Shown: one piece after another, positions 30,336 through 51,686 of the stretch | Layout of the letters: every line of letters begins with the position of its first letter | How positions within the stretch are numbered: the first letter of the stretch is position 1 | From: Trypanosoma brucei | Taxonomy: Eukaryota | Direction: 5' to 3' | DNA length: 64,000 nt | Assembly: GCA_000002445.1 (NCBI GenBank) | Contig: CH464491.1 | Span: forward strand, 3,104,001 to 3,168,000 | Notes under the pieces: model-generated | The model's input: the letters and a program-made list of their open reading frames with translations, nothing else | Told to the model about the DNA's origin: nothing | Database searches by the model: none | Program-made: the position numbers and the translations under genes

Positions 30336-33012
30336 TTGGCGAAGCGCTTGTAAGCACTGCTCAAAAGCATTTCCACACACACACACACACCTTCACGTTG
30401 TCGCGGAAACGGGGGAGGGGGGAAGGAAGGGGTGCATTTCCCTGTCGGAAAGTTTGCAATAAGTGGAAAGAGCTCGGGCATGCATAACCAAACGAAGCCG
30501 CTGTGTGCTTCTGTTTGTATTCTGCATAAAGTGCAAATATGAGTGGAACTGAAGGTGACTAGTCGTTTCTGACCCTTATCGTAGCGCACTCGTCCCGTCT
30601 CTGTAATTGCGCTGCCGCCGCATATAACCAACTTTGCAGGACCCACCCCTGCGCTGCGTTGCGCAGCGGCAAGAGTGAGGGCAAGGACGCAGTATTGCAC
30701 CCTTCCTTGCCCTATTATCGAAATCCTTTTGTGCGTACGCTTTGATTTGTGTGAATCCCTTTCTGCATTGGAAAATTGAAAACAAAAAAATACTTACACG
30801 TACCCGAAGAAGAGGCAAAAAAAGCCTTTTGATTTTGAATAACATACGTGGGCGCGTTGTTACTTGAATCGTGTTGATGCGGCGCCCATGGTGAAAAGCG
30901 TTGCAAAGGCGTTGTATCTCTATGGGGGTGCATCTCCTGCGTTCGACCTCCTCCCCACTTGATGAATTTGACAAGACACGATAGCGGCCAAATGAAGCAA
31001 GGGTAATTGAGTTTCTTGCGACGCCGGGAGGGCACGCATTCGGAGGGGAAGTTCCAAATTAGTTCAATAGCACAGGAGAGAATGGAAAGGAAGTAAACCG
31101 CGTGAATGTGATTCCTCCCACGGACCCGCCCCCCCCCCAGGATGTGAAAAAGGGCCAATGTTCCATGCCGGCGCTAAATTTCTCAGAGGGAAGGTCAGCA
31201 GCCTGCGGGAGCGGCGGGGTTGCGAGACACAAGTCAAAGCCAACGCACCGCGACTCGGAAAAGGTAGCGAAGGGCGAGGTTCATGAGGTGCTGCGCTTAG
31301 CAAAACCCCACAAACTCCGTTCCGCACTCCACACACCCACATGCCTCGCGCAAAACAAAAAACTGAGCACCCCGGAGCCTGTTTATTGGTACTCGTTTCA
31401 CCCCATCCGGGTGAACATTCACGATGTCGCCAACCCAAGCTGCCAGGTCCACAACCGGTAACAGCTTTGACAAAATGGCAAGCGGCTTTGCAGTGCTGAT
31501 CGATGCCCCGTTTGCCTTGCGACTCACGGCACTCCTCATCTGTGGAACATACGTTGAACCCCTAGAACATGCCAGCCGTAGACGAGTGCCACCGTCGACC
31601 ACGGGCCCTCACACCGGTTACCGCAGGTCACTCGGAAAGGAAGGGGGAGGCGGTCACGGGATGGCGAAGTCGGAGCGCAGGTCAGCGTGACAGAAAAGGA
31701 TAGCCGCATATCATCCGCATGAGCAATGTGGAAAACAACTGGGCGATTGGTTGAATGCAAGTGGGCACTGAAGAATCATGGGGCGTTTCCCCGCACCATC
31801 TCAAACCCCTGGAGGGTATCGTTACACGTGGAGATGCCGAATTTAGGCACCACCAATACAGCCGCACATACTTGCGTGACAGCCAAGTTCACTAGCCACA
31901 ACACGAAGAAGGCAGAATAGGTTAGATAAACCCAGAAGACTGGAAGAAGGATATTGGAAAACAGGAACGGTGCTGAACGGAAGGCCACCGGTGGTGTCTT
32001 CCTCGGATGAAGGCGGCGATGCCTGTTGGGAATTGTCCACCCGCCTCGGAGATTGCGGAAACAAGTGCGCTCAAACCTGCGGATGGCAGGCGCAAATAAA
32101 GGACATGCGGTGGGGAGCGGGAGGGGGGTACGACGAGAGGGCACTCAACGGGTTAAGGGATATACCGCCGAAAGAAAAAAAAGTGGATCAACGCACCCTC
32201 TCCTCTCCGCCGCAACCATTCCCAAAACCCTCCTTCTCACCTCTGTTGCCGTTCCCGGCCCGAGTGATGCGCACCGGTGTGAAGCCGAAGCCCTACTGCC
32301 CTGTGAAGTGCTTTTGAAAGATAACAGGATACGCCCAGTTACGAGGAAGCGAAAGTTTAGGTTGCAACGCCGCATGTGCGACCTTCGACGATTCCCTCCT
32401 GCTCTCAGTCGGTTGCGGGCACCTTCCTTCACATAGCCACGTGGCTTTCTCAGTCGTCTTTTTAGCTCAATCAGTCTTCCACATGTATTACCGCAGTGCG
32501 GAAGTCAGCGGGTTTCTGCTTACGTTTCCTTCTGCGACCTTCAAGCGCCTCCCCGCACCATGCGGTGGTCTCTAAACTGCATCTTTAATGTGATTTTGGG
32601 TGCGTGTCTGGCTCCTCCGAGCCTTCCACATTCCATGTTGGGCTACGGCTTCCCCTTGGTTCTTTCATCTTCGCTAACAACCGCGATCGCCCCATCCACT
32701 TTCCGTTCCGTTGCGCAGCATTCGGTAGACAAGCCGTTCCCCATTACCACCGGGAGCCATCTTAGTAACCCCATGAGGTCTCTTAGAAGTGCCTGCAGGC
32801 GCCCCGCACCAACACCTAACTCGTTATTCGCTCCGCTTCAAGGTTCCCAAGAGCCGCTCGCATTCCCCGATGCGTTGGGTTTCGGGAGCCACTTAATAGA
32901 ACAAAACTGAAGGTGTGCAACCTTCACTGCTACCCTCAGGCAGCCTATCTCAGAACGGCGATACACTATACCGAGGCGAAATTATTCCAGGCTTCTGCTG
33001 CCTAAAATTTAA

Positions 33013-35900
33013 AAACCCTAACCCAAGGAGCACACACACACATACAGACACATTGCATCAGTCAATAACGTCATTTAAGCATCGTCCGCACCACACTTAA
33101 AATACTGCTTTCAGCACTCAAACATTACTCAAACCACTCCTAACGCAGTTGAAGTGCTAATCTCAGAGTTACCTGGAGTACTCATAAATGGCTTTTCAAA
33201 TCAAATGGAGATCACCACACTAGTAAGGCATACAGGACTCGTTACAGCTCAGTATCTCAACACACAAAGAAGGAGGCAGCACAAAGCCCACCCCAAAACA
33301 GCACACATCACTATCCACAATTGTTCGTGGAGCATTCATTTGTGTTAGCGAGACGAGCACAAGAGGAGCAGTTGGTTTCAATCCTTAGTTTGCCGTTTGC
33401 ATAATACATGGTCGAAAACCAATGCCAATATGATTCCTCCTGTGATCTGTAAAATTAACGACCCAACAAAAATTACTAATGTAGGAGTGGGAGGTTCGGC
33501 AGGGTCACGCAGGAAAACGATCGGTGCCATTAAAGGATGCTACTACCATCCAACTCGGAAGCAAATACACGGCGGCATGCATGTGATCGATAAGGAATCA
33601 AATCAAATACAATAGTGAACCCTAGCGGCATCCAAACTGTTAAGAAGATTGACGCTCCGAAGGTGGGTGAGCCAGGATAAAAACAACCAAACAATTCAGT
33701 GGGACGAGTAAGTGACACAGAGGAACCCAATATGGCCAAGTCACAGAAACTATCAGTGGGTACCACAACAAATCTGCAGAAAAAATTAATGGCGTACACT
33801 TCGCAAAACAACGCTCATCCACCATATCAACTCTCCGGTGACACAGCAGCACCAAACAGGCGCCGAGTCACCTTCCAACCCAGGAGTTACTCAGTGTGAC
33901 ACACGTATATGTTGACTTTCATGCCACCACCAGTAGTACACTCACGCTGCTTCAAACCGTGTACCAGCTAACGGCAGGTATATTCATCCAGCACTATAAA
34001 GGAATTAAGCATCTAAGGATACGCAGGCCCTGCTGATTCTGAAACAGTCCCTAATACAATATTATCCTTACCACTAGAAGTAACTAAATTCATTAACAAT
34101 CATGAGGGATATAAAGATAGCAATCGGTTTCTGGAAAAGCACCGAACCAACAGTAAAGAGAAAGTCAACAACGCAGCCACAAGCGTCGAGTTACCAAGGA
34201 GGGGGGCGGTGGTTGGAAGTATTAACGACACATAACGCGCACAACAACTGCCCAATTAAGACGCTTTGCACCCTAAGATCCCCATCAATTCATTTAACAA
34301 ACAAAGAAAGGGATGAGAGGCGGGACTATCATACAGCCACGCTGCTAAGCCTTCCTACGTTAATGCAGAGTGCGGCGGATGTGACAGCAACCCCCCAAAC
34401 CAACAGAAAAAACTCAAGGAAATTATTCTTTACTTTGTATGTGCGTTCTTCTTTCATACATCATTCGGTAGCACTGCTATAGTCAGGAGAACAGAAGCGG
34501 CTTTATTAAAGAGCAATTGCCATTCCCTTAACAACACATCATCTCCTTTAACCAAACCCCATATCTCCTTCTTTCCGATTCTTGTTCCACTCAACTTTAC
34601 ATATCCACAGATGGCTCCTTAGAGGGTTTCTTCCCCCTCGCAGTTAACGAGCCGCTCGGCCTTTGCCTCCGAATGCCGTCCATCTTCTCTTTCATTTCAG
34701 CCATCTGTTCCGCAAGCTTGGTGCGTGCGGCACTCAGCTTCGACAGTTTATCCTTAACTTCATCCTCGGCTTTAATTATATCGGCCTTCTGCTTCTCCAG
34801 GCCCTTCAATCTGAACTGCAGGTCCTTCATATTCTTATCGAACAGATTGTCCTGACTCCTCATGTCACCCATCAGCTCGGTCATTAAGTCCATGTTTTGC
34901 TTCCGGAACTCCGCTTCGCGCCGCGTAATGACGGCTTGCATTTCGATGAGTCTCCGGTCCATGGTTTATTGGGATTCCTTACCGAAGTATCACTTTAAGA
35001 ATATCAGACTGCAGTAGAGGTCTTCACTGCAGTACGTAATAGCTATTCTGAATATATACACAGAACGCTATATTACGTTGTCCAAAAATATTTATATTCT
35101 CCCCGCTGTTTTACCTTTCGTTGTTCTTTCAATACGAGCCTCAGCAAAAAGAAAAAAAATGATTTACAAAAATAGCCTAATACAGGATGCTTTGTCTAGG
35201 TATCGCAAACACTTGAAAAATCTGCAACTAGTAAGGAGGAAGAAGGCACAAATTGGGAGATGGCTGTGACAGTTGTAGTGTCCATAAAATAATTAGCATA
35301 TTACTAGACACGGGAATATGGAGAGAGTACACTTAGCCACACACCAGTAGCGCTACCGGATCTCTGATACACATTTTCACAACCGCAACAGCATCTTATC
35401 TTGTTCCTTGTAGAAGATCCCATTGTTCACACTCATTAAGGAAGCATTAAATCGTCTCATACATAATAGAAAGGTGCTGTGGTAAAGAGAGTGGAAATCC
35501 GCCTTATGGAAGTTAAAGAGGGAATCCATAACCCAACCGGTGCACTTCACGGAATAAATTAAAGCGCACGTATCCACGTATGCACATATTGGTAAAGTTA
35601 GCAAATGCAACACAGATGACAGAGGTACCGAACACCAAACAAATATATTATCAAAGTCTTCAATAATCACATGGTGTGGCAAAATCATGAAAGATACACC
35701 GAACAAAGCGGCACGTGTCACGACTAGAGGTGTGAATGGCAAACGGCGAACAAAACACAGTCAATCAGACACCAAGCCATACGAGCATCAGGTAACTCCT
35801 AAGCGAGCCCTTCAACAGGAAAGAAGCAAAGTAACATTTTTCATCACTTGAAGGACTCCCTTCCAGTTATTGCAAGGTTAGTAAGCAGATGTCGGTTCCC
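33013..35900 (+). repeat. Repeat unit copy A1 (full-length, direct orientation) of a ~2.9 kb element present three times
   Basis: Near-identical to 38988-41105 (offset 5202 nt; only one difference found in the stretches compared) and to the reverse complement of 43860-46905. Identical ORF translations recur at 33154/46572, 33699/46021, 34102/39304, 34597/39799/44808 and 35377/40579/44028. The first ~1.6 kb is strongly A/C-rich on the + strand. Confidence 0.9.
34597..34962 (-). CDS. 121-aa coiled-coil ORF carried by the repeat unit (copy in A1)
   Basis: MDRRLIEMQAVITRREAEFRKQNMDLMTELMGDMRSQDNLFDKNMKDLQFRLKGLEKQKADIIKAEDEVKDKLSKLSAARTKLAEQMAEMKEKMDGIRRQRPSGSLTARGKKPSKEPSVDM has heptad-like, charged, non-random composition and is identical in all three copies. 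No family recognised. Confidence 0.3.
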   Translation of the reverse strand: MDRRLIEMQAVITRREAEFRKQNMDLMTELMGDMRSQDNLFDKNMKDLQFRLKGLEKQKADIIKAEDEVKDKLSKLSAARTKLAEQMAEMKEKMDGIRRQRPSGSLTARGKKPSKEPSVDM

Positions 35901-38199
35901 TGGCTTGAATGCAAACGATGATGGTGTTGTTTGGAAATAAGCAGTGCCTATCCTTGGATGTTTTACGTTTTTTTCAGCAATTTTTCTGCGATAATGAAAA
36001 ATACCGTTCCCTCGGCTGCTTTGCGCTCCACTCCGCAGGTGACGAATATAGTTTACTAACCATATCCTGATCATCCTCACTTGATATCTTCCATAGCACG
36101 GAAGCTGTCCCGTTCATCTCGTCGGGCGGGGATCTACTTTGTAGTGATTTAATGCCACAACGGTGCACATATGATTCACGGAGCCGAATGTTCTTGTATA
36201 AACCATACGGTTCCCACCACCGTCTTTCTTTCTTTTCTTCGCCCCAGCTTAGTGGCCTAAGCAGCTTTGCCGCAACGCCTACCGTCGATCTCTTGGGTTA
36301 GGGCCCTGATTGTTGCGGCTGAGGTAAATGGTTCGGGTAATCTTTCAACCTGAGAGCAATATTCCATCCCATTAGTTTGCGGGCGGTGCTCTCAAGGGTT
36401 GCTAGCCGGAGCAATATCACATCTGCTGCGGATTTGCTTGCATTCGGGAAGTGGTATTATAATGCCCTTCCCTCCGCTTCTTCGGTGCTACACTGTGTTC
36501 CACACAGTGGCTATACAGTTTCGGTAGGTTTTTTTGTCCCCGCCGAGCTTCTATAATCCCACGCACGCATTTTCCCTGTGGACACCGTTCTCACGGATAA
36601 TCCACTTAACACTAACTTTAATTCCTCCATGGCAAGCAAGATGTGCATATAATTCCCTACCCCAGGCAGCGCCGTCTCCGGAGTCCCTAGAACCTTTGCG
36701 AATTCCCTCCTGCTAATCCCTGCAGTTGCCTTTTCTTTGCTGCTTTTGCACCCGGTGGTACCTGCCATGTACCACCACTGGGGTGCTCCGCAGCGTTGGT
36801 GCATATGCCGCATTTACTAAGCTCTGGGTTCATGACTCAGTGAGATTGTGTACACACCCACTGCTACCGCGCGTTCCCTCCAGTGCAGCATACATGGTGA
36901 CAGTGTCATGGCTGTCACGGGTTATGCCAAATATGTTCACACAAGCGTGTATTTATGGGCACTTTTCTGGTGTTAGTCTAACCGACGCTCTTCTAAACTC
37001 TCCCGTTTGTCCTGGCCAATGCACCACATACGTACAGCCCTCTATCGCCACTGACACCCTTAACTCCTTAAGGTGCCATGCTATTCGAGTGTTCCGGAAA
37101 ACCAGGTATCACTTTGCCTTCTACTCGTTCACCGCCCAGACACAACCCCCGCGTAATGCGAAGTCCACCTTAGTCTTCGTGAATGTACTTTGCCAACGCA
37201 AGTCTTTTCAGCTGGGGGAGGACTAAAGTATTCTACCGCGATCCACGTGAAATAGGATCTGTGGTGTTTTTTTTTCCGATATTACCACGCACGGTATCAG
37301 TGGTAGCAAAGCACATATAATCAAAAAAGCGTGCTTTCACGCCCAGTAGATAATAAAGATATCCCTCGCCACCACCGGAGGGGTTACGGCGTTGCTGTAT
37401 GCCCCCACCGTAGTGAACAATGGCAGTTCGGCGGCGTCAATATCCAAAGACTGAGTGATGCAGAAACTTGGTTTGTCCTACAAGGGTATCCGCACAAGAT
37501 GCATGTGCGACACCCCTACTTGCATGCAGAACAGGTGCCTGTTGTGCAACTTCGAAAGCAAATTAGGTCGTTTCTCCGTAACGCATTAAGCTGGGTGAGG
37601 ACAATCATTTAACATCAGAGGACACTGTAAAGGTGTAAGAAGTCTTAGCGGTCGCGCACAGTCAATGCGACAAACACATTCATGTTGTCCTGTGTTTAGT
37701 GCCACAGCCAGAATAAAGGAGCCTGCAGTAGAAAGTAATAAGCTCCTTTCCGCCCCCACCCCGTTCAGGTAGCAGTTCCGTGTTCCCCCATGGTGGGGTT
37801 CCTGTGGAGGCCAATCAACACTGAAAAATATTGGCAACAAAACGAGACTCAGCGAAGAGTAGGCAAACAAAATAAAAAAAAAGTGCAATTGCTCTGCCTA
37901 ACACACTGTTGTTATAGTATCCCTGAGTCCGGAAGGCGGCGCCCCATGCATCGCGCAACGTCACAAAGTCAACCAAACACAGAGAGCATGCAGATTGATA
38001 TCACACGGAAATGATGAACATTCGTCCGTCAGAGGAGGGGAAATAGCGACGGCACGCGCCACTTATCTCGAGAACACGGTAACAAGCACGGCAGCAAACG
38101 ATACGACCCGCACTTAAATATTTCTTTACTTTTCATTGTCTACATACCAGAAACGCAACACCGCCATATCTCTTAAAATCTGCACACCCTTTCATTTCT

Positions 38200-38987
38200 G
38201 CGCACTAGTTTATGAAAAAAAAACAAAGAGTCCCCAAGACAAGCTTGATGCCCAGAAACCACAGTTACTAAACGGTACATCACATTCTTCAGTGCTTCCC
38301 CCTACACCAAAAAGTTGGAAAAACAAACAAACATATGCTACATCAACATTACGACACTGCAGAGCTCCAGAGACATGATTCACACATGCAGAAACAATTA
38401 AAGACAAAACAACTAAAGGACAGAGATGACATATTTTTGTAATAACAATATGGGCACCAACATTTTTCGGAAGATCAGCTAAGGGTAAAAAAAACATATA
38501 TACACATCAGATCCAACCTACAAAATTCAACAAAAAGGAAAGCACAGCAAAAGATCTAGCAAATATATGTAGTAAAACAGAAACGAAGACACAGCAATTA
38601 TTTATATTATTAAAATTACAAATTCTAAACACATTTTAATAAATCAACAAAGCTCCAAGAATGTCAAAAAAAAAAACACGTAACCCACAACAATAAACAA
38701 AACAGGAAACCGCCACCCACAAAAACTGCAACAGCCAACAAAATAGGATTAAACAAAAAAATGAAAAACCCCTCCGTCACCATAAAAACAAATTAATAAT
38801 ATACTAAGAAGAAAAAGCAACCATCCACCACCGAACACAAAAAAATAAGAATATAATATATAAAAAATAAAAAAATTCTAACAAATTATACGGAAGTGGA
38901 ATCTAAATGTAAATATATACAACACCGACTAAAAATCATAAAAAAACAAGAGCAAAAAATACATGAGCATAATTGACAACAAAAAAA
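38200..38987 (+). repeat. ~800 bp A/C-rich low-complexity tract (poly-A runs, acaaaa-like motifs) immediately 5' of repeat copy A2
   Basis: Direct reading: extreme A richness with almost no G/T on the + strand (..caaaaaaaaaaacacgtaacccacaacaataaacaaaacaggaaacc..). Confidence 0.85.
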
Positions 38988-41668
38988 TTAATGGCGTACA
39001 CTTCGCAAAACAACGCTCATCCACCATATCAACTCTCCGGTGACACAGCAGCACCAAACAGGCGCCGAGTCACCTTCCAACCCAGGAGTTACTCAGTGTG
39101 ACACACGTATATGTTGACTTTCATGCCACCACCAGTAGTACACTCACGCTGCTTCAAACCGTGTACCAGCTAACGGCAGGTATATTCATCCAGCACTATA
39201 AAGGAATTAAGCATCTAAGGATACGCAGGCCCTGCTGATTCTGAAACAGTCCCTAATACAATATTATCCTTACCACTAGAAGTAACTAAATTCATTAACA
39301 ATCATGAGGGATATAAAGATAGCAATCGGTTTCTGGAAAAGCACCGAACCAACAGTAAAGAGAAAGTCAACAACGCAGCCACAAGCGTCGAGTTACCAAG
39401 GAGGGGGGCGGTGGTTGGAAGTATTAACGACACATAACGCGCACAACAACTGCCCAATTAAGACGCTTTGCACCCTAAGATCCCCATCAATTCATTTAAC
39501 AAACAAAGAAAGGGATGAGAGGCGGGACTATCATACAGCCACGCTGCTAAGCCTTCCTACGTTAATGCAGAGTGCGGCGGATGTGACAGCAACCCCCCAA
39601 ACCAACAGAAAAAACTCAAGGAAATTATTCTTTACTTTGTATGTGCGTTCTTCTTTCATACATCATTCGGTAGCACTGCTATAGTCAGGAGAACAGAAGC
39701 GGCTTTATTAAAGAGCAATTGCCATTCCCTTAACAACACATCATCTCCTTTAACCAAACCCCATATCTCCTTCTTTCCGATTCTTGTTCCACTCAACTTT
39801 ACATATCCACAGATGGCTCCTTAGAGGGTTTCTTCCCCCTCGCAGTTAACGAGCCGCTCGGCCTTTGCCTCCGAATGCCGTCCATCTTCTCTTTCATTTC
39901 AGCCATCTGTTCCGCAAGCTTGGTGCGTGCGGCACTCAGCTTCGACAGTTTATCCTTAACTTCATCCTCGGCTTTAATTATATCGGCCTTCTGCTTCTCC
40001 AGGCCCTTCAATCTGAACTGCAGGTCCTTCATATTCTTATCGAACAGATTGTCCTGACTCCTCATGTCACCCATCAGCTCGGTCATTAAGTCCATGTTTT
40101 GCTTCCGGAACTCCGCTTCGCGCCGCGTAATGACGGCTTGCATTTCGATGAGTCTCCGGTCCATGGTTTATTGGGATTCCTTACCGAAGTATCACTTTAA
40201 GAATATCAGACTGCAGTAGAGGTCTTCACTGCAGTACGTAATAGCTATTCTGAATATATACACAGAACGCTATATTACGTTGTCCAAAAATATTTATATT
40301 CTCCCCACTGTTTTACCTTTCGTTGTTCTTTCAATACGAGCCTCAGCAAAAAGAAAAAAAATGATTTACAAAAATAGCCTAATACAGGATGCTTTGTCTA
40401 GGTATCGCAAACACTTGAAAAATCTGCAACTAGTAAGGAGGAAGAAGGCACAAATTGGGAGATGGCTGTGACAGTTGTAGTGTCCATAAAATAATTAGCA
40501 TATTACTAGACACGGGAATATGGAGAGAGTACACTTAGCCACACACCAGTAGCGCTACCGGATCTCTGATACACATTTTCACAACCGCAACAGCATCTTA
40601 TCTTGTTCCTTGTAGAAGATCCCATTGTTCACACTCATTAAGGAAGCATTAAATCGTCTCATACATAATAGAAAGGTGCTGTGGTAAAGAGAGTGGAAAT
40701 CCGCCTTATGGAAGTTAAAGAGGGAATCCATAACCCAACCGGTGCACTTCACGGAATAAATTAAAGCGCACGTATCCACGTATGCACATATTGGTAAAGT
40801 TAGCAAATGCAACACAGATGACAGAGGTACCGAACACCAAACAAATATATTATCAAAGTCTTCAATAATCACATGGTGTGGCAAAATCATGAAAGATACA
40901 CCGAACAAAGCGGCACGTGTCACGACTAGAGGTGTGAATGGCAAACGGCGAACAAAACACAGTCAATCAGACACCAAGCCATACGAGCATCAGGTAACTC
41001 CTAAGCGAGCCCTTCAACAGGAAAGAAGCAAAGTAACATTTTTCATCACTTGAAGGACTCCCTTCCAGTTATTGCAAGGTTAGTAAGCAGGTGTCGGTTC
41101 CTTGGCCCAATAGATAATCTTCCTTATTGATGCTCACATTCAATACGCCGAAAGAAATGGTACGGTGCGATTACCACCTCGGAAAAAAGCTCCACCCATG
41201 TAATGGATCCCCAATATAAGGGGCGTGCAACCTGGAAAGAAGGGCAAAAATAAAAAAGAGCCATCGCGGTTACACCTCGCCTTTACGCACTGTATGTGAT
41301 GTTCATGCCAAGCACACCCGTACTCCGCTACGTCCTCGCTGGCTCTGGAATCCCGCTGCCATGGAGGGGTGCCCACTCATGGTGGGGATGAAGACGCGTG
41401 GCGCCTGCCGCGCTGGGCAGGGGGGCGGGGGAAAGCGGAGGGAGGCCAGGCGACGTTTTTAACCGCCTGTGCGTCTCAGATTATCACCCCATATAGCACT
41501 GACCTACCCAGATTGGGAATTGCGAGCTCATTACCACTTCGTAAAAGATGGAACGACCAACACACGGCAACCAGCACATCGGCCCACGCACCCCTCCCTT
41601 CTCCACCAGGGGAGAAGCAAGAGTAGTGAATGCGACACCGCCTTGGGCATCTCACTGCGTTACCGCGG
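38988..41668 (+). repeat. Repeat unit copy A2 (direct orientation; 5'-truncated relative to A1; carries a 560 bp extension shared only with the inverted copy). Left arm of the long palindrome
   Basis: 38988-41105 matches A1 33782-35900. 41105-41668 is matched only by the reverse complement of 43296-43860. The arm ends at ...gcatctcactgcgttaccgcggcc. Confidence 0.9.
39799..40164 (-). CDS. 121-aa coiled-coil ORF (copy in A2)
   Basis: Identical translation to 34597..34962. Confidence 0.3.
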   Translation of the reverse strand: MDRRLIEMQAVITRREAEFRKQNMDLMTELMGDMRSQDNLFDKNMKDLQFRLKGLEKQKADIIKAEDEVKDKLSKLSAARTKLAEQMAEMKEKMDGIRRQRPSGSLTARGKKPSKEPSVDM

Positions 41669-43295
41669 CCCTACATCAACCGGATGCCCGAGTGAAATAG
41701 GATGGCCGCACTAAATAATATACTAGCAACCGCGGACCTGGCTTCTGGTAGACCCGTTGTTTTTATTGGCGATATAATTTTTTTTGTTTAAGCTTGTTAC
41801 ACCACTTTTTGTAGTTTGCTGAATAGGTATCTCCTTATATCTCTTGTCATCGGTATTAGATAACGGTAAAGGTGCTGAGCTGAATGTGGAGGTTTTACCT
41901 TTTTTCATTGGAAGCTGACCTATTATGTGCGTTAGGGTCTTAAGGCATTAAATGTTGCTATGAGCAGAGGGGTATATTGCCTTCAGCGCGTGTGTGTCTT
42001 CTCTGGGTGTGCGGTGCTTCCTTCCCAGAGAGGCACACCGTTCGCGACCAAAGGTCTGTTTAAAACCGTTGCTTCAGGTGTGCCGGCGGCCCTTCAACAT
42101 GATTGTTCTCGAACACTGTTTTGTTTAGCTGACTATGTGGACTTAAGGTAGGGAAAATACACTACCTTATTTAAACATTTTAGCACAAAAAATAAATCAG
42201 CAATTGCGGGGGATTTTACAAGTAACCTTTTGTTTCAACTGAAATCAGGAATACAAGGGTCGAATCTTCAGCGGAAATGGTGGCCTACCAAGTTAAGGAT
42301 ACAAAACTGACGGAGCACAAAACCACATCTGGACTCATGCGTAGACCGCGCCACTGTAGTGCCGAGTCATGTGTCAGAGTGAGAGGCGCCTTTGACAACA
42401 CGACTGGACAACTACTCGATTTCCCGTTTCAATATGCGCCACTCCGCCTAAGCATATTCTGCGCTCACTTTCAGGTGAAACGACCTCCAGAAGAGGAAAA
42501 GGTAAAATTAAAGCAGCAGAGCAACAACATGAGCAACCGTGAAAACAATAGATGCAAGTAACAGCATTCTGTAACAGAGGGCGCGTGTTCTGCGCGAAGT
42601 GCGTGTTAAGGGCTGGTGAAAGCCGCCGCCACTCAAAGAAAATTGGTTACTTAGCCCCGCCAAATCCCTGTATTTTAGTTTGGCCGCGCCCTTGTTGCTC
42701 CAGCCGCACGGCGTACACGCGTATTAGCATAGAATTCTCAACCATTCTTCCCGTATAATCTTAAACCTCTTCGGGGGAGCGTAATTGACTAACGCCACGC
42801 CTGAACGTATCTAAGGGCCTTCTGGAAATAATTTTTGCCTTGCAACGGATCTAGTGCGCTCCCCACTATGAGTTGATACCGTTGCCTTTCCGCCCCACTT
42901 TAATCCTCGTAGAATAAGATGAAGCCGCTCGGCTTTCGCTATCCGAGTAGGGTGCCGGAGCCTGGTAGCACGTTTGGGTGGCCCGCATCGCCAGGAGAAA
43001 CGAAATTATATCATTTCCCGCGATACACACCAAAACTTAACAAATACACCAGAGGCTAACTATTTCTTTACATTAGGCACTTCCTGCCAAAACAGCTGAT
43101 CGACACCGTCTCAACAAATGTAAGGCGTGGCTGTGAGCCTTCCTGGGGTCAGGAGGCGGCGGCGATGCAAGTGCCGGTTGGCGCCGGGGTGCCTGAATCG
43201 TTTGGGACTGTGGCCAGCACCCTTCGTATAAAACGCTTGCGAGTCGCCGGCCCCTCACGATTTGAGCATTACGTGCTTGTTGGCATTGAGGTTAC
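41669..43295. other. Unique ~1.6 kb central spacer of the palindrome (no repeat partner, no ORF over 100 aa)
   Basis: Flanked by exact inverted copies: 41369..41626(+)/43346..43603(-) and 41469..41714(+)/43255..43503(-) give identical translations on opposite strands. The sequence between the points where the arms diverge is single-copy in this window. Confidence 0.8.
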
Positions 43296-44807
43296 AGTGC
43301 TGGCCGCGGTAACGCAGTGAGATGCCCAAGGCGGTGTCGCATTCACTACTCTTGCTTCTCCCCTGGTGGAGAAGGGAGGGGTGCGTGGGCCGATGTGCTG
43401 GTTGCCGTGTGTTGGTCGTTCCATCTTTTACGAAGTGGTAATGAGCTCGCAATTCCCAATCTGGGTAGGTCAGTGCTATATGGGGTGATAATCTGAGACG
43501 CACAGGCGGTTAAAAACGTCGCCTGGCCTCCCTCCGCTTTCCCCCGCCCCCCTGCCCAGCGCGGCAGGCGCCACGCGTCTTCATCCCCACCATGAGTGGG
43601 CACCCCTCCATGGCAGCGGGATTCCAGAGCCAGCGAGGACGTAGCGGAGTACGGGTGTGCTTGGCATGAACATCACATACAGTGCGTAAAGGCGAGGTGT
43701 AACCGCGATGGCTCTTTTTTATTTTTGCCCTTCTTTCCAGGTTGCACGCCCCTTATATTGGGGATCCATTACATGGGTGGAGCTTTTTTCCGAGGTGGTA
43801 ATCGCACCGTACCATTTCTTTCGGCGTATTGAATGTGAGCATCAATAAGGAAGATTATCTATTGGGCCAAGGAACCGACATCTGCTTACTAACCTTGCAA
43901 TAACTGGAAGGGAGTCCTTCAAGTGATGAAAAATGTTACTTTGCTTCTTTCCTGTTGAAGGGCTCGCTTAGGAGTTACCTGATGCTCGTATGGCTTGGTG
44001 TCTGATTGACTGTGTTTTGTTCGCCGTTTGCCATTCACACCTCTAGTCGTGACACGTGCCGCTTTGTTCGGTGTATCTTTCATGATTTTGCCACACCATG
44101 TGATTATTGAAGACTTTGATAATATATTTGTTTGGTGTTCGGTACCTCTGTCATCTGTGTTGCATTTGCTAACTTTACCAATATGTGCATACGTGGATAC
44201 GTGCGCTTTAATTTATTCCGTGAAGTGCACCGGTTGGGTTATGGATTCCCTCTTTAACTTCCATAAGGCGGATTTCCACTCTCTTTACCACAGCACCTTT
44301 CTATTATGTATGAGACGATTTAATGCTTCCTTAATGAGTGTGAACAATGGGATCTTCTACAAGGAACAAGATAAGATGCTGTTGCGGTTGTGAAAATGTG
44401 TATCAGAGATCCGGTAGCGCTACTGGTGTGTGGCTAAGTGTACTCTCTCCATATTCCCGTGTCCAGTAATATGCTAATTATTTTATGGACACTACAACTG
44501 TCACAGCCATCTCCCAATTTGTGCCTTCTTCCTCCTTACTAGTTGCAGATTTTTCAAGTGTTTGCGATACCTAGACAAAGCATCCTGTATTAGGCTATTT
44601 TTGTAAATCATTTTTTTTCTTTTTGCTGAGGCTCGTATTGAAAGAACAACGAAAGGTAAAACAGAGGGGAGAATATAAATATTTTTGGACAACGTAATAT
44701 AGCGTTCTGTGTATATATTCAGAATAGCTATTACGTACTGCAGTGAAGACCTCTACTGCAGTCTGATATTCTTAAAGTGATACTTCGGTAAGGAATCCCA
44801 ATAAACC

Positions 44808-45173
44808 ATGGACCGGAGACTCATCGAAATGCAAGCCGTCATTACGCGGCGCGAAGCGGAGTTCCGGAAGCAAAACATGGACTTAATGACCGAGCTGATG
44901 GGTGACATGAGGAGTCAGGACAATCTGTTCGATAAGAATATGAAGGACCTGCAGTTCAGATTGAAGGGCCTGGAGAAGCAGAAGGCCGATATAATTAAAG
45001 CCGAGGATGAAGTTAAGGATAAACTGTCGAAGCTGAGTGCCGCACGCACCAAGCTTGCGGAACAGATGGCTGAAATGAAAGAGAAGATGGACGGCATTCG
45101 GAGGCAAAGGCCGAGCGGCTCGTTAACTGCGAGGGGGAAGAAACCCTCTAAGGAGCCATCTGTGGATATGTAA
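44808..45173 (+). CDS. 121-aa coiled-coil ORF (copy in A3, here on the + strand)
   Basis: Identical translation to 34597..34962 and 39799..40164. Confidence 0.3.
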   Translation: MDRRLIEMQAVITRREAEFRKQNMDLMTELMGDMRSQDNLFDKNMKDLQFRLKGLEKQKADIIKAEDEVKDKLSKLSAARTKLAEQMAEMKEKMDGIRRQRPSGSLTARGKKPSKEPSVDM

Positions 45174-45244
45174 AGTTGAGTGGAACAAGAATCGGAAAGA
45201 AGGAGATATGGGGTTTGGTAAAGGAGATGATGGTGTAAGGAATG

Positions 45245-45344
45245 NNNNNNNNNNNNNNNNNNNNNNNNNNNNNNNNNNNNNNNNNNNNNNNNNNNNNNNN
45301 NNNNNNNNNNNNNNNNNNNNNNNNNNNNNNNNNNNNNNNNNNNN
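45245..45344. other. Assembly gap (exactly 100 N) inside repeat copy A3
   Basis: Run of n characters. The sequence on both sides repeats ggggtttggt(t)aaaggagatgatg, so the gap sits in a locally duplicated or collapsed motif. Confidence 0.95.
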
Positions 45345-46905
45345 GGAAGAAGAGATTGGGGTTTGGTTAAAGGAGATGATGTGTTGTTAAGGGAATGGCA
45401 ATTGCTCTTTAATAAAGCCGCTTCTGTTCTCCTGACTATAGCAGTGCTACCGAATGATGTATGAAAGAAGAACGCACATACAAAGTAAAGAATAATTTCC
45501 TTGAGTTTTTTCTGTTGGTTTGGGGGGTTGCTGTCACATCCGCCGCACTCTGCATTAACGTAGGAAGGCTTAGCAGCGTGGCTGTATGATAGTCCCGCCT
45601 CTCATCCCTTTCTTTGTTTGTTAAATGANATTGATGGGGATCTTAGGGTGCAAAGCGTCTTAATTGGGCAGTTGTTGTGCGCGTTATGTGTCGTTAATAC
45701 TTCCAACCACCGCCCCCCTCCTTGGTAACTCGACGCTTGTGGCTGCGTTGTTGACTTTCTCTTTACTGTTGGTTCGGTGCTTTTCCAGAAACCGATTGCT
45801 ATCTTTATATCCCTCATGATTGTTAATGAATTTAGTTACTTCTAGTGGTAAGGATAATATTGTATTAGGGACTGTTTCAGAATCAGCAGGGCCTGCGTAT
45901 CCTTAGATGCTTAATTCCTTTATAGTGCTGGATGAAATATACCTGCCGTTAGCTGGTACACGGTTTGAAGCAGCGTGAGTGTACTACTGGTGGTGGCATG
46001 AAAGTCAACATATACGTGTGTCACACTGAGTAACTCCTGGGTTGGAAGGTGACTCGGCGCCTGTTTGGTGCTGCTGTGTCACCGGAGAGTTGATATGGTG
46101 GATGAGCGTTGTTTTGCGAAGTGTACGCCATTAATTTTTTCTGCAGATTTGTTGTGGTACCCACTGATAGTTTCTGTGACTTGGCCATATTGGGTTCCTC
46201 TGTGTCACTTACTCGTCCCACTGAATTGTTTGGTTGTTTTTATCCTGGCTCACCCACCTTCGGAGCGTCAATCTTCTTAACAGTTTGGATGCCGCTAGGG
46301 TTCACTATTGTATTTGATTTGATTCCTTATCGATCACATGCATGCCGCCGTGTATTTGCTTCCGAGTTGGATGGTAGTAGCATCCTTTAATGGCACCGAT
46401 CGTTTTCCTGCGTGACCCTGCCGAACCTCCCACTCCTACATTAGTAATTTTTGTTGGGTCGTTAATTTTACAGATCACAGGAGGAATCATATTGGCATTG
46501 GTTTTCGACCATGTATTATGCAAACGGCAAACTAAGGATTGAAACCAACTGCTCCTCTTGTGCTCGTCTCGCTAACACAAATGAATGCTCCACGAACAAT
46601 TGTGGATAGTGATGTGTGCTGTTTTGGGGTGGGCTTTGTGCTGCCTCCTTCTTTGTGTGTTGAGATACTGAGCTGTAACGAGTCCTGTATGCCTTACTAG
46701 TGTGGTGATCTCCATTTGATTTGAAAAGCCATTTATGAGTACTCCAGGTAACTCTGAGATTAGCACTTCAACTGCGTTAGGAGTGGTTTGAGTAATGTTT
46801 GAGTGCTGAAAGCAGTATTTTAAGTGTGGTGCGGACGATGCTTAAATGACGTTATTGACTGATGCAATGTGTCTGTATGTGTGTGTGTGCTCCTTGGGTT
46901 AGGGG

Positions 46906-47800
46906 TTTTAAAGTTAATCTTAGCTTTTTTTGTTCTTCCAGTTGAATGTTGTTGTTTATGTTTTTCGTGGATATAGTGTTGTTTTAAAGCGTAAGGAATT
47001 TTTTGACGATATATTTCTATTTATTATTTTAAATCTGTTGTTGGTGAATGTAGATTTTGTTTTGTTGACTTAATTTGTCTTCTTTTTTGTTTCTTTGTTC
47101 TTTTTTTTTTTTTGTGTGGTGCCTTGTAATTCTTCTTTTTTTATCTTGGTGATTTTGCATGATAATGCTTTGTGTGTGAATATTTGTTTACCGATTAGCT
47201 CATTAATGGTCATATGTGACTTATAAGTTCGTTTATTTGTGGCAGATTGTGTTATTTTTATATGGCTTTAGTTCATCTTGCTGCAGCGGTTTTTATTAGA
47301 TTAATTTTTCGATACCTGTTTGTTGACGTTAAAGTGTGTTGGTGAGTGATGGCCTCTTATCTTGGCGTGTTGCGACGCATAGTTCCATTATTACTTAGTT
47401 GTGTATAAGTGACTGCTCATCTTTTGCTAGTGGTTAATCATTGCGGATGGGGTTAAGCGAATCACGTATAATTAAAATTGAAAAATTGGTGGGAGCAGTT
47501 ACTGCACGGTGTTGCATCGTTGTTTGGTGTGTGTGTGTGGTGTTGCTGCCGTAACATGCAGCAAAAATCTCGGTACTGAATGCCTTTGTTTTGCATGCTA
47601 CAGTGCTTTGGCAACGAAATTCACCGCCTCCGTAACTTCGATGTACGGGGTGCTTGTGATTTGTTGCTAGTGCCTGTGTTTGAAGAGTGAAAGATATTTT
47701 CTATACCTAAAAGAAGTTGACATGAAAGGGTCTTGGCAAATGAATGGTGGCTCAATGAAACATAAAAAAGAGAGGGGTCTTTAAAAAAAAAAAAAAAGAA
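46906..47800 (+). repeat. ~0.9 kb G/T-rich low-complexity tract flanking the inverted copy (compositional mirror of the 38200-38987 A/C-rich tract)
   Basis: Direct reading: T/G-rich with poly-T runs (..ttgttcttttttttttttttgtgtggtgcc..). Not an exact reverse complement of the left tract but the same motif flavour, consistent with diverged outer palindrome arms. Confidence 0.7.
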
Positions 47801-49690
47801 CGCGCCTCTACGGTTCGCCAATATTAGTAAATGCCTTTAACTCTTCGCGTTGTATTCAGCTCGTGTTGGAGGCGTGCAAGCGTATCCTTGGTGTTGTTTA
47901 ATTCATATGTGCTCTGTGGAAGTGATGGCCTCCTAAATGTGGTACCAGAGACGGCAGTACTGCTCACATGGAGAACTGTGTTGTGTTTTGGTTGAGGTAT
48001 GTGGTGCAGCACAAGGATGAGTCGCTCTGTGCCGAGGCGCCGCTTTTCTACCTTGTCGGTGCGTGGCCGCGTGCAAATGGGCTGTCAGCACTATCCCTCC
48101 CAATGAAATTGTTATCGGTGCGAGATGGGATGTCCCTGGAGCCATGTGATGGATCCTTGAAAGCAGTCTGTAGAGCTGATTAGTTGGAAACCAAGTAGAT
48201 GAAGTCAAGTGTTTGGCGCATTCATCTTCGGTTAGCGGTATGCATCGAAACAACTTTTTTTCGTGAAGCGGAGGTCGTGGGGCTAAAGGGTAGCCAACCT
48301 CCACATCCCTGTTCATGTTGCTTTGTATGGCGCGTCCACCGAAAAGGCAAATGGCTGAAGGTAATCATATACGGAAATAGAGCAACACACTCTTTGACAG
48401 AAGGTGTTCGGCACTACTCTCCGAGCAGCAGGGGCACATGGTTCGTACAGGTTCGGGTGACGCAACTGACGGCTGAAAGTATAGCGACAGGCACTACATT
48501 CTGTTCTCCACCTGAACACTTTGGGCGAGCAGATGTTTCCCCGGACATTTTCACTTCTTGTGGCAGAGAGGTTGAATCGTTTGCATACCGTCTGCAAAAT
48601 GACATCTACCCCGGCATTGGCGTTTGTTTTGCAACCCACGGTGGGACATGCATGGCATGTCACCAACTTCTGAGAACGAGGCTCCTGATCATTCAGAATA
48701 CCTTCTGGGAATGAGAATGCACGACATATTATCCAGGAGGAAATCAAGAGCGGGTATCTTCGTGTTGTCCAAGCGGTCGGATCAAGGGTTGGCATGCTAT
48801 TTCGCCGCGATGCCACGCACACTGAATGCGAACAGGGCTTGTGACCTTGTTGTCTGTAATCTGATCACCTTTCCGTCATCGAGACTGCCTTGTCACCGGG
48901 CCTGCAAGGTTACTGAAGGGAGGAGGGTTTGGATTCTCAACGAGGCATGAGCAGGCTTTTCCTGATTGAAAATAGCCAGCGGCGATGATAAATTCTGATT
49001 TCCTAGGCATCCACCCTTTGATCCATCACGTTCCGGAGCGTCTGGTCCGGATGAAGGTTTGACCATTCAATTTCTTCCGTTATTCTTGTTTTGCTCATGG
49101 CAGAAGTTTTGCCGCGCGGTGTTTCCATTTTTTTTTTTCTTTTGCATTCCAGCTCCCGTCAAGTCAGTTTTACCTGACTCCAGTTTCCACCAACCCTCGC
49201 ACTACCTTTCGGCGGAGTAACCCTATGATCGGTGTTGTGCGCGTGCCCATAGCAGGGCGATGCAATGAGCGCCTCCTCGCTCGGCCATCGAAGGAGGTCC
49301 CTAAAAGTTATCAAGAAGAAAAGAAAGCACCGAATGGTAGCGTTTTGCTGTACCACGTTTTTAAGATGACATAGTTCGGTAGCAAAATTTGTGACGAAAA
49401 TGAACACACACACACACACGTATATATATATATACTCTCAAGCTAAGGTAGTTTGAGACTTGCTTTGGTTAGGCCGTTTTTTGTGCTGTCGGGAGACTTT
49501 TCCCCCCTGGAAACCTTTCCCTGTTAAGCGCCGGTGAGGGTGGTTACAGCCACAGCGCCGCGTGTGACAAGCATGATGATTAAGCACCCCTCGGAAGAAA
49601 CCCTTTATCCCTTGATGTAGGAAAATCCACTCGGCACGTGTTCGCCTTCGAGTTTTTGCCAGCTTAGACCATTCTAAGGTTTGGCTTTCT

Positions 49691-50680
49691 TCATCTGCGT
49701 GGGCCAGTTTTGAGACACCGCTGATTCCATTCCAAGAAGCGCCGTTCGCACCGCGTTGTGCAAATGGTTACTTTTTTGCTGGCGGTAAGTGGCACCTCGG
49801 GGAGAAACTGCCGGTATAAAGAAAGGCTTAGGTTGGCCAGCGTAAGTGAGCCTAGTTCCACGCTAGCTTCCATCAGTAGTTCAGCAGCTACAGACCCGCG
49901 TTTTTCGTAGCTTCCGGGTAGAGACAGTCCGCAGTCTGCTCCGCCTCCTGTGATGCAGTCTTCCATAACAAAAGTTGCTTGTGAAGAAGCTATATCTCCC
50001 ATAGCCAAACAAAGCCCCAAACCGCGCAGGAAAGGCACCCAGTTCTCGTTGCTCACCCCCTTCGCACGGCATTTCTGCACGACGGAACGGTCATCCCCGT
50101 CGTACTCGCCAAGAAGGTCCACAAGCAGCCTTAGCAGAACGTCCGACCGCTCCTCTCCAAAAAACAACTTGAACTTTTCCGGATGTCGCATGACACTTAT
50201 GGGATGAACGAAAAATTGTGATGGTTTGACGTTTGGGGCGATGGCACCGTGCAACACCGCTCTTTCAAAGATTAAGCGACTCTCAAACAGGCAGTAGGCG
50301 TAAACGTGGGGGTGATACGGCAGTGAAATCAGCCTTACTGCTTCGGTTGTGGAGTAACCACAGGGCGGTGCTGTGTCAGAAGAAAATGGCAGGTGCATAG
50401 ACAAGAGGTCATTATCCTCAGAAGCACTCGATGCCTTTTTCCGTTCGGCACCGAATGTCCTTTCAACCCATGACCCTCGGTTGCACTTCTGTGTGAACTG
50501 ACAAAGCGGGCGACAAACTTTCATTAAATACTTTACCTTACTTTGTTGTAAAAGCAGCTGGGGGTGGGTGGTTGAGGTGCTCGACATGTGGTATTTGAAG
50601 GAAGGGGAAACATGGGTAGGGTTGAGAGTGCTCCCAACAGTGGCTGCGCCGGCTTTGAGACTAATCGGTGACAGTGGCAA
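49691..50680 (-). CDS. Hypothetical protein (329 aa) on the minus strand; the only candidate minus-strand gene in the window
   Basis: Long ORF with non-repetitive, protein-like composition (..CRPLCQFTQKCNRGSWVERTFGAERKK..HPHVYAYCLFESRLIFERAVLHGAIAPNVKP..). The only long opposite-strand ORF is 85 aa. No family recognised. Confidence 0.4.
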   Translation of the reverse strand: MPLSPISLKAGAATVGSTLNPTHVSPSFKYHMSSTSTTHPQLLLQQSKVKYLMKVCRPLCQFTQKCNRGSWVERTFGAERKKASSASEDNDLLSMHLPFSSDTAPPCGYSTTEAVRLISLPYHPHVYAYCLFESRLIFERAVLHGAIAPNVKPSQFFVHPISVMRHPEKFKLFFGEERSDVLLRLLVDLLGEYDGDDRSVVQKCRAKGVSNENWVPFLRGLGLCLAMGDIASSQATFVMEDCITGGGADCGLSLPGSYEKRGSVAAELLMEASVELGSLTLANLSLSLYRQFLPEVPLTASKKVTICTTRCERRFLEWNQRCLKTGPRR

Positions 50681-51686
50681 CTAAAAGCGTTCTGAGTGAA
50701 CAGAGCTGTGACCGGCTTCCACGAGGTTGTCCCTTTAGATCTCAAGGTGGGCTGCGCGGCCGCCCCCGTGGCGGGTTTCTGCTTCTTTTTTTTTTCCGCG
50801 GCCCCCCGGCATCAAAAAGAAATAGAAAAACAAAGCAGAAACGGGGGAAAATGACGAGACCCGGGTGCTTTAATTCCCTTTTCGCTTTGTTGTGCTTTGC
50901 TGCGAACCGCTTGCACTGAGGAATGGGCCCCTGGTGGCACGTCAACACTTGACCTTTCGGGCTGAATTTGTTGAAACCGTAGAAGGTTGCGGTTTGCTGC
51001 ATTTTCAGCACGTTTTCTGTCCTGCGGTAGCACCTCCCGCGTCGGGTGTTGCGGCTTCGCCCCGAACAGCTTGTGTGGTGGTCGGTTGGCCACATCCTGT
51101 GGGATACCACCGATTGGGGCCGTTGTTCCTTCGTCTGGTTTGCAGCACCAGCGTCGTCGGTGAAGGGTGGTGGCGTTACTCGTTCTAATCGGCTTCTCTG
51201 GATTTCTGAAGTTCTGTCGCTCCATGCCTTTGAGAGCATAATATGGTGTCAGGCGGGGGGGGGGGGCTCCCAGTTTGAGTGAAGCTGGTCCTGCTCCCCT
51301 CCCCTGGAGGTTGCTTCCCCTTCCGCCGATATTGAGCAGGGATCTGCGTGAAAAATCCTACCCATGATTGTGGGTGTGGGACTGACTGCTTGGTCAAGCG
51401 TCTTTTTCTTTCGTATAGATTTGAAAAAAAATGTTGTTGGCGTCCTGGGTGTGGTCGTGGTTCAGTAACCATTTTCTTTTCTTTTTCTTGCGCTCGAGCA
51501 AACACAAATATTATCGACGCCGACTGCCTAACTAGGTTAGTCGTGAGCCATTGTTGAAATTTATACCGTTAAATCCGGGCGGAATAGACGGTAAAGGGTG
51601 ACGAAAAAAGGGGGAAAAAGAGCATCTCAAGTTATATGACATTAGCTACTCAGCTATTAGTACTTGGAGTCATCGACTAGGGTGAA
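50681..51686. promoter_or_regulatory. Putative divergent strand-switch region (possible Pol II transcription start zone) between the minus-strand ORF and the downstream + gene block; contains a G12 run at 51255-51266
   Basis: Gene polarity flips here if 49691..50680(-) is genuine. There are G-rich and C-rich homopolymer tracts (ccgcccccgtggcggg at ~50760; aggcgggggggggggggctcc at 51251). Kinetoplastid divergent SSRs are known transcription start regions. Confidence 0.3.

Follow-up and report, generated by a model that had tools for sequence, protein, structure and literature searches.

The CAP15 gene of Trypanosoma brucei is triplicated, with one copy inverted, around a divergent RNA polymerase II start region

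CAP15 (corset-associated protein 15) of Trypanosoma brucei and the related protein CAP17 are said to have been characterized by Vedrenne et al. in 2002 (Mol Biol Cell 13:1058). We analyzed a 64-kb stretch of T. brucei TREU927 chromosome 11 (Tb927_11_01_v4:3104001-3168000, called the window below; offset, 3,104,000) in which a unit carrying a 121-amino-acid (aa) coiled-coil open reading frame (ORF) and a second, hydrophobic ORF occurs three times. The coiled-coil ORF is the known gene CAP15 (Tb11.01.3805), and we conclude with high confidence that the locus is a CAP15 gene cluster triplicated around a divergent RNA polymerase II (Pol II) start region, in which the hydrophobic ORF arose by chance. 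Where four later papers cite Vedrenne 2002 (PMC4152294, PMC3826061, PMC3280300, PMC8625193), they describe CAP15 and CAP17 as stage-regulated proteins of the subpellicular corset that stabilize microtubules, bind mammalian microtubules directly, and are concentrated in the anterior corset. A published study has also used CAP15::HA as a cytoskeletal control in bloodstream forms. The main content of this account is already known: CAP15 is a characterized gene for which splice sites, poly(A) sites, ribosome profiles, and proteomic data have all been published. The evidence for concerted evolution among the copies and the recognition of a 100-N assembly gap as an artifact are new.

The identity of the coiled-coil ORF was established by an exact-sequence look-up, which returned EAN80148.1/UniProt Q382Y3 with 100% identity. 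This entry is labeled “microtubule-associated protein” in TREU927 and “corset-associated protein 15” in T. equiperdum. Tb11.01.3805 is located at Tb927_11_01_v4:3148543-3149173 (+), which corresponds to positions 44543 to 45173 of the window and therefore to the third copy of the unit (Table 1). A preliminary description of this DNA, made from its sequence alone, had called the ORF protein-like and placed it in no family that it recognized. The first statement was correct; the second was wrong, because CAP15 was characterized in 2002 and is annotated. CAP15 has strongly gene-like codon usage: its log-likelihood ratio is 0.37 per codon, compared to 0.16 ± 0.08 for genes in the window, and its GC content at third codon positions is 0.68.

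The calculated mass of 14.09 kDa fits a polypeptide of ∼15 kDa, and the calculated pI is 9.65. AlphaFold2 predicts a single helix spanning residues 3 to 99 with a pLDDT (predicted local distance difference test score) of >90, followed by a disordered basic tail. A long helix with a basic tail would be compatible with a microtubule-associated role without being diagnostic of one. A search of Pfam with CAP15 gave only a subthreshold match to a coiled-coil family, OVT1 (18 bits versus a cutoff of 30.9). The preliminary description had proposed a protein search with this ORF, and that search recovered CAP15 itself together with CCC96102.1 of T. congolense IL3000, which has 66% identity, with substitutions that are conservative (E = 2.5e−36). 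CCC96102.1 has 148 aa and a tail that is longer than that of CAP15 and rich in Pro, Glu, and Ala. It is labeled “hypothetical protein, unlikely” but appears to be a mislabeled genuine orthologue. It was the sole homologue outside Trypanozoon among 5.8 billion clusters and in a phmmer search of 1.84 billion representatives, the latter retrieving no homologue from other kinetoplastids.

CAP15 is expressed as a processed and translated mRNA. Published ribosome profiling (Vasquez 2014, PMC3973304, Tables S1/S2) gives Tb11.01.3805 an RNA level of 437 reads per kilobase per million (RPKM), footprints of 1148 RPKM, and a translational efficiency of 2.6 in the bloodstream form, compared to 50 RPKM, 175 RPKM, and 3.5, respectively, in the procyclic form. 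Microarray data likewise place CAP15 4.3- to 4.8-fold higher in bloodstream forms (PMC2443814). The two minus-strand copies are flagged in Table S5 of the profiling study as “previously unannotated CDSs” (coding sequences). Copy 1 has 113 footprint reads/nt and copy 2 has 115.6 footprint reads/nt, each with 100% of its length covered and 16 peptides, and these peptides also match an annotated CDS.

Transcript ends point the same way. Spliced-leader (SL) addition and poly(A) sites have been mapped for copies 2 and 3 (Kolev 2010, PMC2936537); the supplements of the spliced-leader-trapping paper contain no entry under these gene IDs. The copy 2 mRNA corresponds to Tb11.NT.142, for which RNA of 150/28.6 RPKM and footprints of 176/20.7 RPKM (bloodstream/procyclic form) are listed in PMC3973304 Table S6. 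The 5′ end of the copy 3 mRNA at 44543 directly follows ccttcttcctccttactAG and gives a 5′ untranslated region (UTR) of 265 nt. Copy 1 would use the same splice acceptor, ccttcttcctccttactAG, ending at 35228, judging from its identity to copies 2 and 3 at their mapped sites. The preliminary description had left open whether the coiled-coil ORF is expressed and had suggested SL and poly(A) site mapping and ribosome profiling to decide the matter. The published sites in copies 2 and 3, together with the heavy footprints (113 to 116 reads/nt with 100% coverage), settle it: the ORF yields a trans-spliced, polyadenylated, and translated mRNA whose product has been detected by mass spectrometry.

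An exact look-up of flanking proteins assigned the window to chromosome 11 of T. brucei brucei TREU927, and the offset was checked in two ways. The annotated coordinates of the neighbors Tb11.01.3790 and Tb11.01.3800 coincide with ORFs in the window, and seven of eight tested published SL 5′ ends lie directly 3′ of an AG preceded by a polypyrimidine tract; the remaining one sits 5 nt upstream of the closest AG. Repeat finding and self-BLAST gave three copies, >99.4% identical, of a unit of 2.1 to 3.5 kb in the order direct, direct, inverted (A1, A2, and A3 in Table 1). A1 is a direct copy of A2 located 5202 nt to its left, and the match between the two begins at A1 position 33780. Together, A2 and A3 make up an inverted repeat of 2689 nt that flanks a unique center of 1631 nt. 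A1 has 2900 nt in common with A3 and 2125 nt with A2. It is truncated at its inner end, where it lacks 564 nt common to A2 and A3, and A2 is truncated at its outer end, where it lacks 775 nt common to A1 and A3. Outside the gap artifact discussed below, the copies are ∼99.9% identical, with only three differences between A1 and A2 (at 35105, 35889, and 35900). Position 35105 has three states (G/A/T) across the TREU927 copies.

The repeat map and the ORF list thus bear out much of what had first been noticed: three copies arranged direct, direct, inverted in a kinetoplastid chromosome core, with both ORFs on the same strand in each copy and opposite to the A/C-rich strand (the ORF strand is T/G-rich, with T 0.32, G 0.25, A 0.24, and C 0.19). 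Some details required revision. The units, given as ∼2.9 kb, are real repeats of 2.1 to 3.5 kb; A1 and A2 are truncated at different ends, and A3 contains the run of Ns. The stretch between A1 and A2, given as 2 kb of unique sequence followed by an A/C-rich tract, does exist as a spacer, and its true length is 3.08 kb including the A/C-rich tract, which occupies the right-hand ∼1 kb (38000 to 38981) and reads U/G-rich on the transcribed minus strand.

Near-identical copies are typical of misassembled repeats, and A3 contains a 100-N gap with low-quality overlapping flanks. Short-read assemblies also break or collapse at this repeat; T. equiperdum OVI contigs end there, and Logan contigs are ∼1 kb long. 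The inverted third copy, or even the entire triplication, might on these grounds be a collapsed or misjoined repeat peculiar to the TREU927 assembly. We regard this as extremely improbable. The independent T. b. equiperdum IVM-t1 assembly (GCA_003543875.1) contains three CAP15 genes that match in orientation and spacing (5.2 and 5.0 kb), all of them annotated (RHW67659.1, RHW68110.1, and RHW68194.1), and a 37.6-kb composite from it is collinear with the window at 99.4 to 99.6% identity with 0 N. Moreover, copy-specific differences exist, some of which are common to both strains (e.g., 35900, C/T/T in both), and the published transcripts Tb11.NT.143 and Tb11.NT.140 join the center to A3 and the spacer to A1, respectively, in the expected orientations. 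Because an independent, gap-free assembly has the identical layout, the triplication with its one inverted copy is, on this comparison of assemblies, genuine and not an assembly artifact.

The gap itself can be accounted for. The sequences on either side of it (45197 to 45244 and 45347 to 45397) are duplicates of ∼50 nt that are 87% identical, and the T. b. equiperdum assembly is continuous across the corresponding position. The overlapping flanks and the continuous sequence indicate an unclosed join of overlapping contigs, by which reading the gap is artifactual and no sequence is missing. It inflates the apparent 3′ UTR of CAP15 copy 3 by about 153 nt. A3 has in addition one isolated N, at 45629.

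Copies 1 and 2 are read leftward (CAP15-2/Tb11.NT.142 on the minus strand), whereas Tb11.NT.143 and CAP15-3 are on the plus strand, with a gene-free region between the two sets. The sign of the GC skew changes at 32 kb and again at 41 to 43 kb, and rightward genes extend up to 30335 and resume from about 51.5 kb. Table S14 of Kolev 2010 (PMC2936537) lists Tb11.01.3805-Tb11.01.3805 (+) as a Pol II unit of one annotated ORF and of type “Divergent,” situated between a unit ending with Tb11.01.3790 and an “Internal” unit starting with Tb11.01.3840. The main text of that paper reports enrichment of 5′-triphosphate RNA at every divergent unit. Therefore, from the Kolev class and text, the center of the palindrome is a mapped region of bidirectional transcription initiation by Pol II; the precise start would lie in the unique sequence between A2 and A3. 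The preliminary description considered that a three-copy small coiled-coil gene in palindromic arrangement would, if expressed, be unusual for a kinetoplastid chromosome core. The layout is real, and it is explained by the divergent start region at its center.

Further to the right, the 5′ end of the Tb11.01.3840 mRNA is at ∼51499 (+), where the unit is classed as an “Internal” Pol II start (Kolev 2010, PMC2936537). This start implies that transcription from the CAP15 side terminates between about 47.5 and 51.5 kb, after CAP15-3 and Tb11.NT.144. Within the inner arms of the inverted repeat, adjoining the start region, a G-rich tract, GGGCAGGGGGGCGGGGGAAAGCGGAGGGAGG, is found at 41416 to 41446 (+) and mirrored at 43527 to 43557. 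It is antisense to CAP15 transcription on either side and could form a G-quadruplex.

Four transcripts that flank the CAP15 mRNAs, Tb11.NT.140, 141, 143, and 144, have been published (PMC2936537 Table S7; PMC3973304 Table S6). They are spliced, polyadenylated, rare, and nearly ribosome-free, and they are likely by-products of the processing of intergenic RNA. Tb11.NT.143 begins in the unique center and spans copy 3 of the hydrophobic ORF.

The hydrophobic ORF is present in all three copies, as first reported, although the length given for it, 121 aa, is reached only from a TTG; the first ATG (35688 in copy 1) gives 103 aa. It lies 150 to 515 nt upstream of the CAP15 splice acceptor and is for this reason not part of the CAP15 mRNA. 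It could be a genuine gene for a small membrane protein that was coamplified with CAP15, given that it is intact in all three copies on the transcribed strand, is contained in the processed and polyadenylated Tb11.NT.140 and Tb11.NT.143, and is hydrophobic (grand average of hydropathy, +0.52). We consider a second gene of this kind very unlikely. Even the 103-aa version is at the extreme 3′ end of transcripts of 1.5 to 2.9 kb, behind many upstream ATGs. Footprints on Tb11.NT.140 and Tb11.NT.143 are 0.4 to 1.0 RPKM compared to 7.6 to 17 RPKM for RNA, a footprint/RNA ratio of 0.03 to 0.08 versus 2.6 to 3.5 for CAP15. The ORF is absent from the footprint-supported candidates in Table S5 of Vasquez 2014, for which footprints had to cover at least 70% of an ORF at 2× or more.

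Database searches and sequence statistics agree with this assessment. The sequence of the hydrophobic ORF was not found in a collection of 15 billion proteins and so has never been called as a gene, no homologue was detected at E ≤ 0.1 among 5.8 billion clusters, and Pfam gave no match. Its codon log-likelihood ratio is 0.06 to 0.08 and does not distinguish one frame from another. Among dinucleotide shuffles of the same strand, 9.5% contain a frame that stays free of stops for 121 codons or more, a figure that rises to 29% for the two strands together. The hydrophobicity is attributable to T at 43% of second codon positions on a T-rich strand, and intactness in three copies is uninformative because the whole unit is ∼99.9% identical. 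The hydrophobic ORF is therefore best regarded as a stop-free stretch that arose by chance in A-poor, T-rich intergenic sequence and not as a gene.

The strand-biased composition of the unit and the rarely translated Tb11.NT.140, 141, 143, and 144 would also be expected of a mobile or nonautonomous repeat, or of a noncoding RNA locus, that bears only chance ORFs, as the preliminary description had envisaged for the case of no expression. We assign this reading a negligible likelihood. The coiled-coil ORF is translated, supported by peptides, and conserved in T. congolense at the identity given above; within the window, all three copies are at one locus, with no further copy; and the whole window yielded no Rfam or tRNA matches, and Pfam searches of both ORFs revealed no transposase or reverse-transcriptase domains. 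In addition, the boundaries of the repeat differ from one pair of copies to another (33005 versus 33780; 35904 versus 41670), and pair-specific boundaries are expected of segmental duplication rather than transposition. The strand bias of the unit is due to the U/G-rich intergenic sequence that flanks the CAP15 gene.

In the CAP15 cluster, each repeat unit consists of the CAP15 CDS and the signals for its processing, namely, a polypyrimidine tract with an AG acceptor placed 265 nt before the ATG, a 3′ UTR of ∼400 nt, and U/G-rich intergenic flanks. Transcription starts bidirectionally in the 1.6-kb unique center between copies 2 and 3, and the intergenic U/G-rich sequence is itself processed into low-abundance, essentially untranslated by-product transcripts. 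The extra copies probably raise the dosage of CAP15, and gene conversion is likely to keep them alike.

The last point was addressed with an alignment of six copies of the 2.1-kb core, three from each of two strains, TREU927 and T. b. equiperdum. At two sites the copies within a strain all agree, yet the strains differ: one is 34219, in the 3′ UTR, and the other is 34705, where CAG/CAA is a synonymous difference at codon 86. Strain-specific substitutions common to all copies suggest concerted evolution by gene conversion that includes the inverted copy. One could go further and suppose that the mirror layout is itself functional, a dedicated, very short bidirectional unit in which CAP15 comes first, proximal to the promoter, on both sides, its dosage is boosted and possibly tuned to the life cycle stage, its copies are homogenized by conversion, and the flanking transcripts are regulatory. 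The data show the layout and the divergent unit and hint at homogenization of the copies; the proposal as a whole is speculative and, in our estimation, unlikely to be correct.

Several observations weigh against parts of the interpretation given here. Statements on CAP15 function come from the passages of later papers that cite Vedrenne 2002. CAP17, which is called related, was not retrieved by phmmer or word-index searches at E ≤ 1e−3, and its similarity to CAP15 must therefore be weak or local. Short reads are not assignable to single identical copies, so that one copy could be silent. The hydrophobic ORF is inside real, if rare, processed transcripts, and translation of it at a very low level is conceivable. 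Finally, the case for concerted evolution consists of two sites in two strains.

Four annotated hypothetical genes share the region (Table 1). Tb11.01.3800, 3810, and 3830 have 0 to 1 RNA and footprint reads and noncoding codon scores; Tb11.01.3820 is labeled “conserved,” has ≤27 reads, and has no homologue outside T. brucei. All four are probably spurious gene models. The annotated minus-strand ORFs at 48 to 51 kb were also considered as a real, short transcription unit converging on CAP15-3. This is unlikely because they have 0 to 27 reads and noncoding codon scores, the “conserved” ORF has no homologues, and no Kolev unit corresponds to them.

Table 1. Features of the CAP15 locus, in window coordinates. 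RNA and footprint values are in RPKM for bloodstream form/procyclic form (BF/PF).
Feature	Position	Strand	Remarks
Repeat copy A1	33005-35904	-	Carries CAP15 copy 1
CAP15 CDS copy 1	34597-34962	-	121 aa; unannotated in genome v4; getorf_Tb927_11_01_v4_-_63225
5′ UTR of CAP15 copy 1 (putative)	34963-35227	-	Splice acceptor ends at 35228
Hydrophobic ORF copy 1	35377-35742	-	TTG start; 3′ end of Tb11.NT.140
Tb11.NT.140	35378-38301	-	2923-nt processed transcript; RNA 12.5/7.6, footprints 1.0/0.54 RPKM (BF/PF)
Unique spacer between A1 and A2	35905-38981	.	3.08 kb
Tb11.01.3800	36894-37226	+	Annotated hypothetical gene
Tb11.NT.141	38400-39290	-	Low-abundance processed transcript downstream of CAP15-2 mRNA
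Repeat copy A2	38982-41670	-	Left arm of inverted repeat; carries CAP15 copy 2
CAP15 copy 2 mRNA, Tb11.NT.142	39400-40429	-	1029 nt; SL site 40429, poly(A) site 39400
CAP15 CDS copy 2	39799-40164	-	Unannotated in genome v4; getorf_Tb927_11_01_v4_-_63156
Hydrophobic ORF copy 2	40579-40944	-	Best read as a chance ORF
Unique palindrome center	41671-43301	.	Strand-switch/Pol II start region; first plus-strand SL site 42913
Tb11.NT.143	42913-44435	+	Low abundance; RNA 17.4/15.2, footprints 0.5/0.37 RPKM (BF/PF)
Repeat copy A3	43302-46915	+	Longest copy, inverted, right arm; carries CAP15 copy 3
Hydrophobic ORF copy 3	44028-44393	+	Best read as a chance ORF; inside Tb11.NT.143
CAP15 copy 3 mRNA, Tb11.01.3805	44543-45704	+	SL site 44543, major poly(A) site 45704
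CAP15 CDS copy 3	44808-45173	+	Tb11.01.3805, EAN80148.1, Q382Y3
Assembly gap, 100 N	45245-45344	.	Inside A3
Tb11.NT.144	45836-47550	+	Low abundance; downstream of CAP15-3; mirror of Tb11.NT.141
Tb11.01.3810	48313-48795	-	Annotated hypothetical gene
Tb11.01.3820	49691-50587	-	Annotated hypothetical gene, labeled “conserved”
Tb11.01.3830	50742-51239	-	Annotated hypothetical gene

Two of the three CAP15 copies are missing from the v4 annotation, which makes copy number relevant to the design of knockout, RNA interference, and tagging experiments. The locus is also a compact case in which an inverted duplication extends across a Pol II start region and shows signs of concerted evolution.

Compared to the CAP15 of Vedrenne et al. 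2002, copy 3 shows nothing different: the 121 aa are 100% identical, the copy is at the annotated position, and the size, the higher bloodstream expression, and the basic helical protein all agree. Copies 1 and 2 differ from the known entry in being unannotated in v4, and they were reported by Vasquez 2014 as CDSs that lacked annotation but were identical to an annotated one. CAP17 (Tb11.01.7880) is described as a related small corset-associated, microtubule-stabilizing protein and is encoded on the same chromosome ∼1.08 Mb away. In contrast to CAP15, it is procyclic enriched and thus has the opposite stage regulation (PMC2443814); the comparison of the two proteins is by description and by the phmmer miss.

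The center of the locus resembles the divergent strand-switch regions of trypanosomatids (Siegel 2009; Kolev 2010) in that it is gene-free, is of the Kolev class “Divergent,” and has the first SL sites within about 1.2 kb. It differs in that the units are very short, the right one with one annotated ORF and the left one with two CAP15 copies and noncoding transcripts, and in that they mirror each other, each opening with the same duplicated gene. With the gene-conversion arrays of T. brucei (tubulin, histone, HSP70, and PGK), the CAP15 copies have in common near identity that extends to UTRs and intergenic sequence and strain-specific shared substitutions. Unlike those arrays, the CAP15 cluster has only three copies, one of which is inverted across a start region, and is not arranged head to tail in one polycistron.

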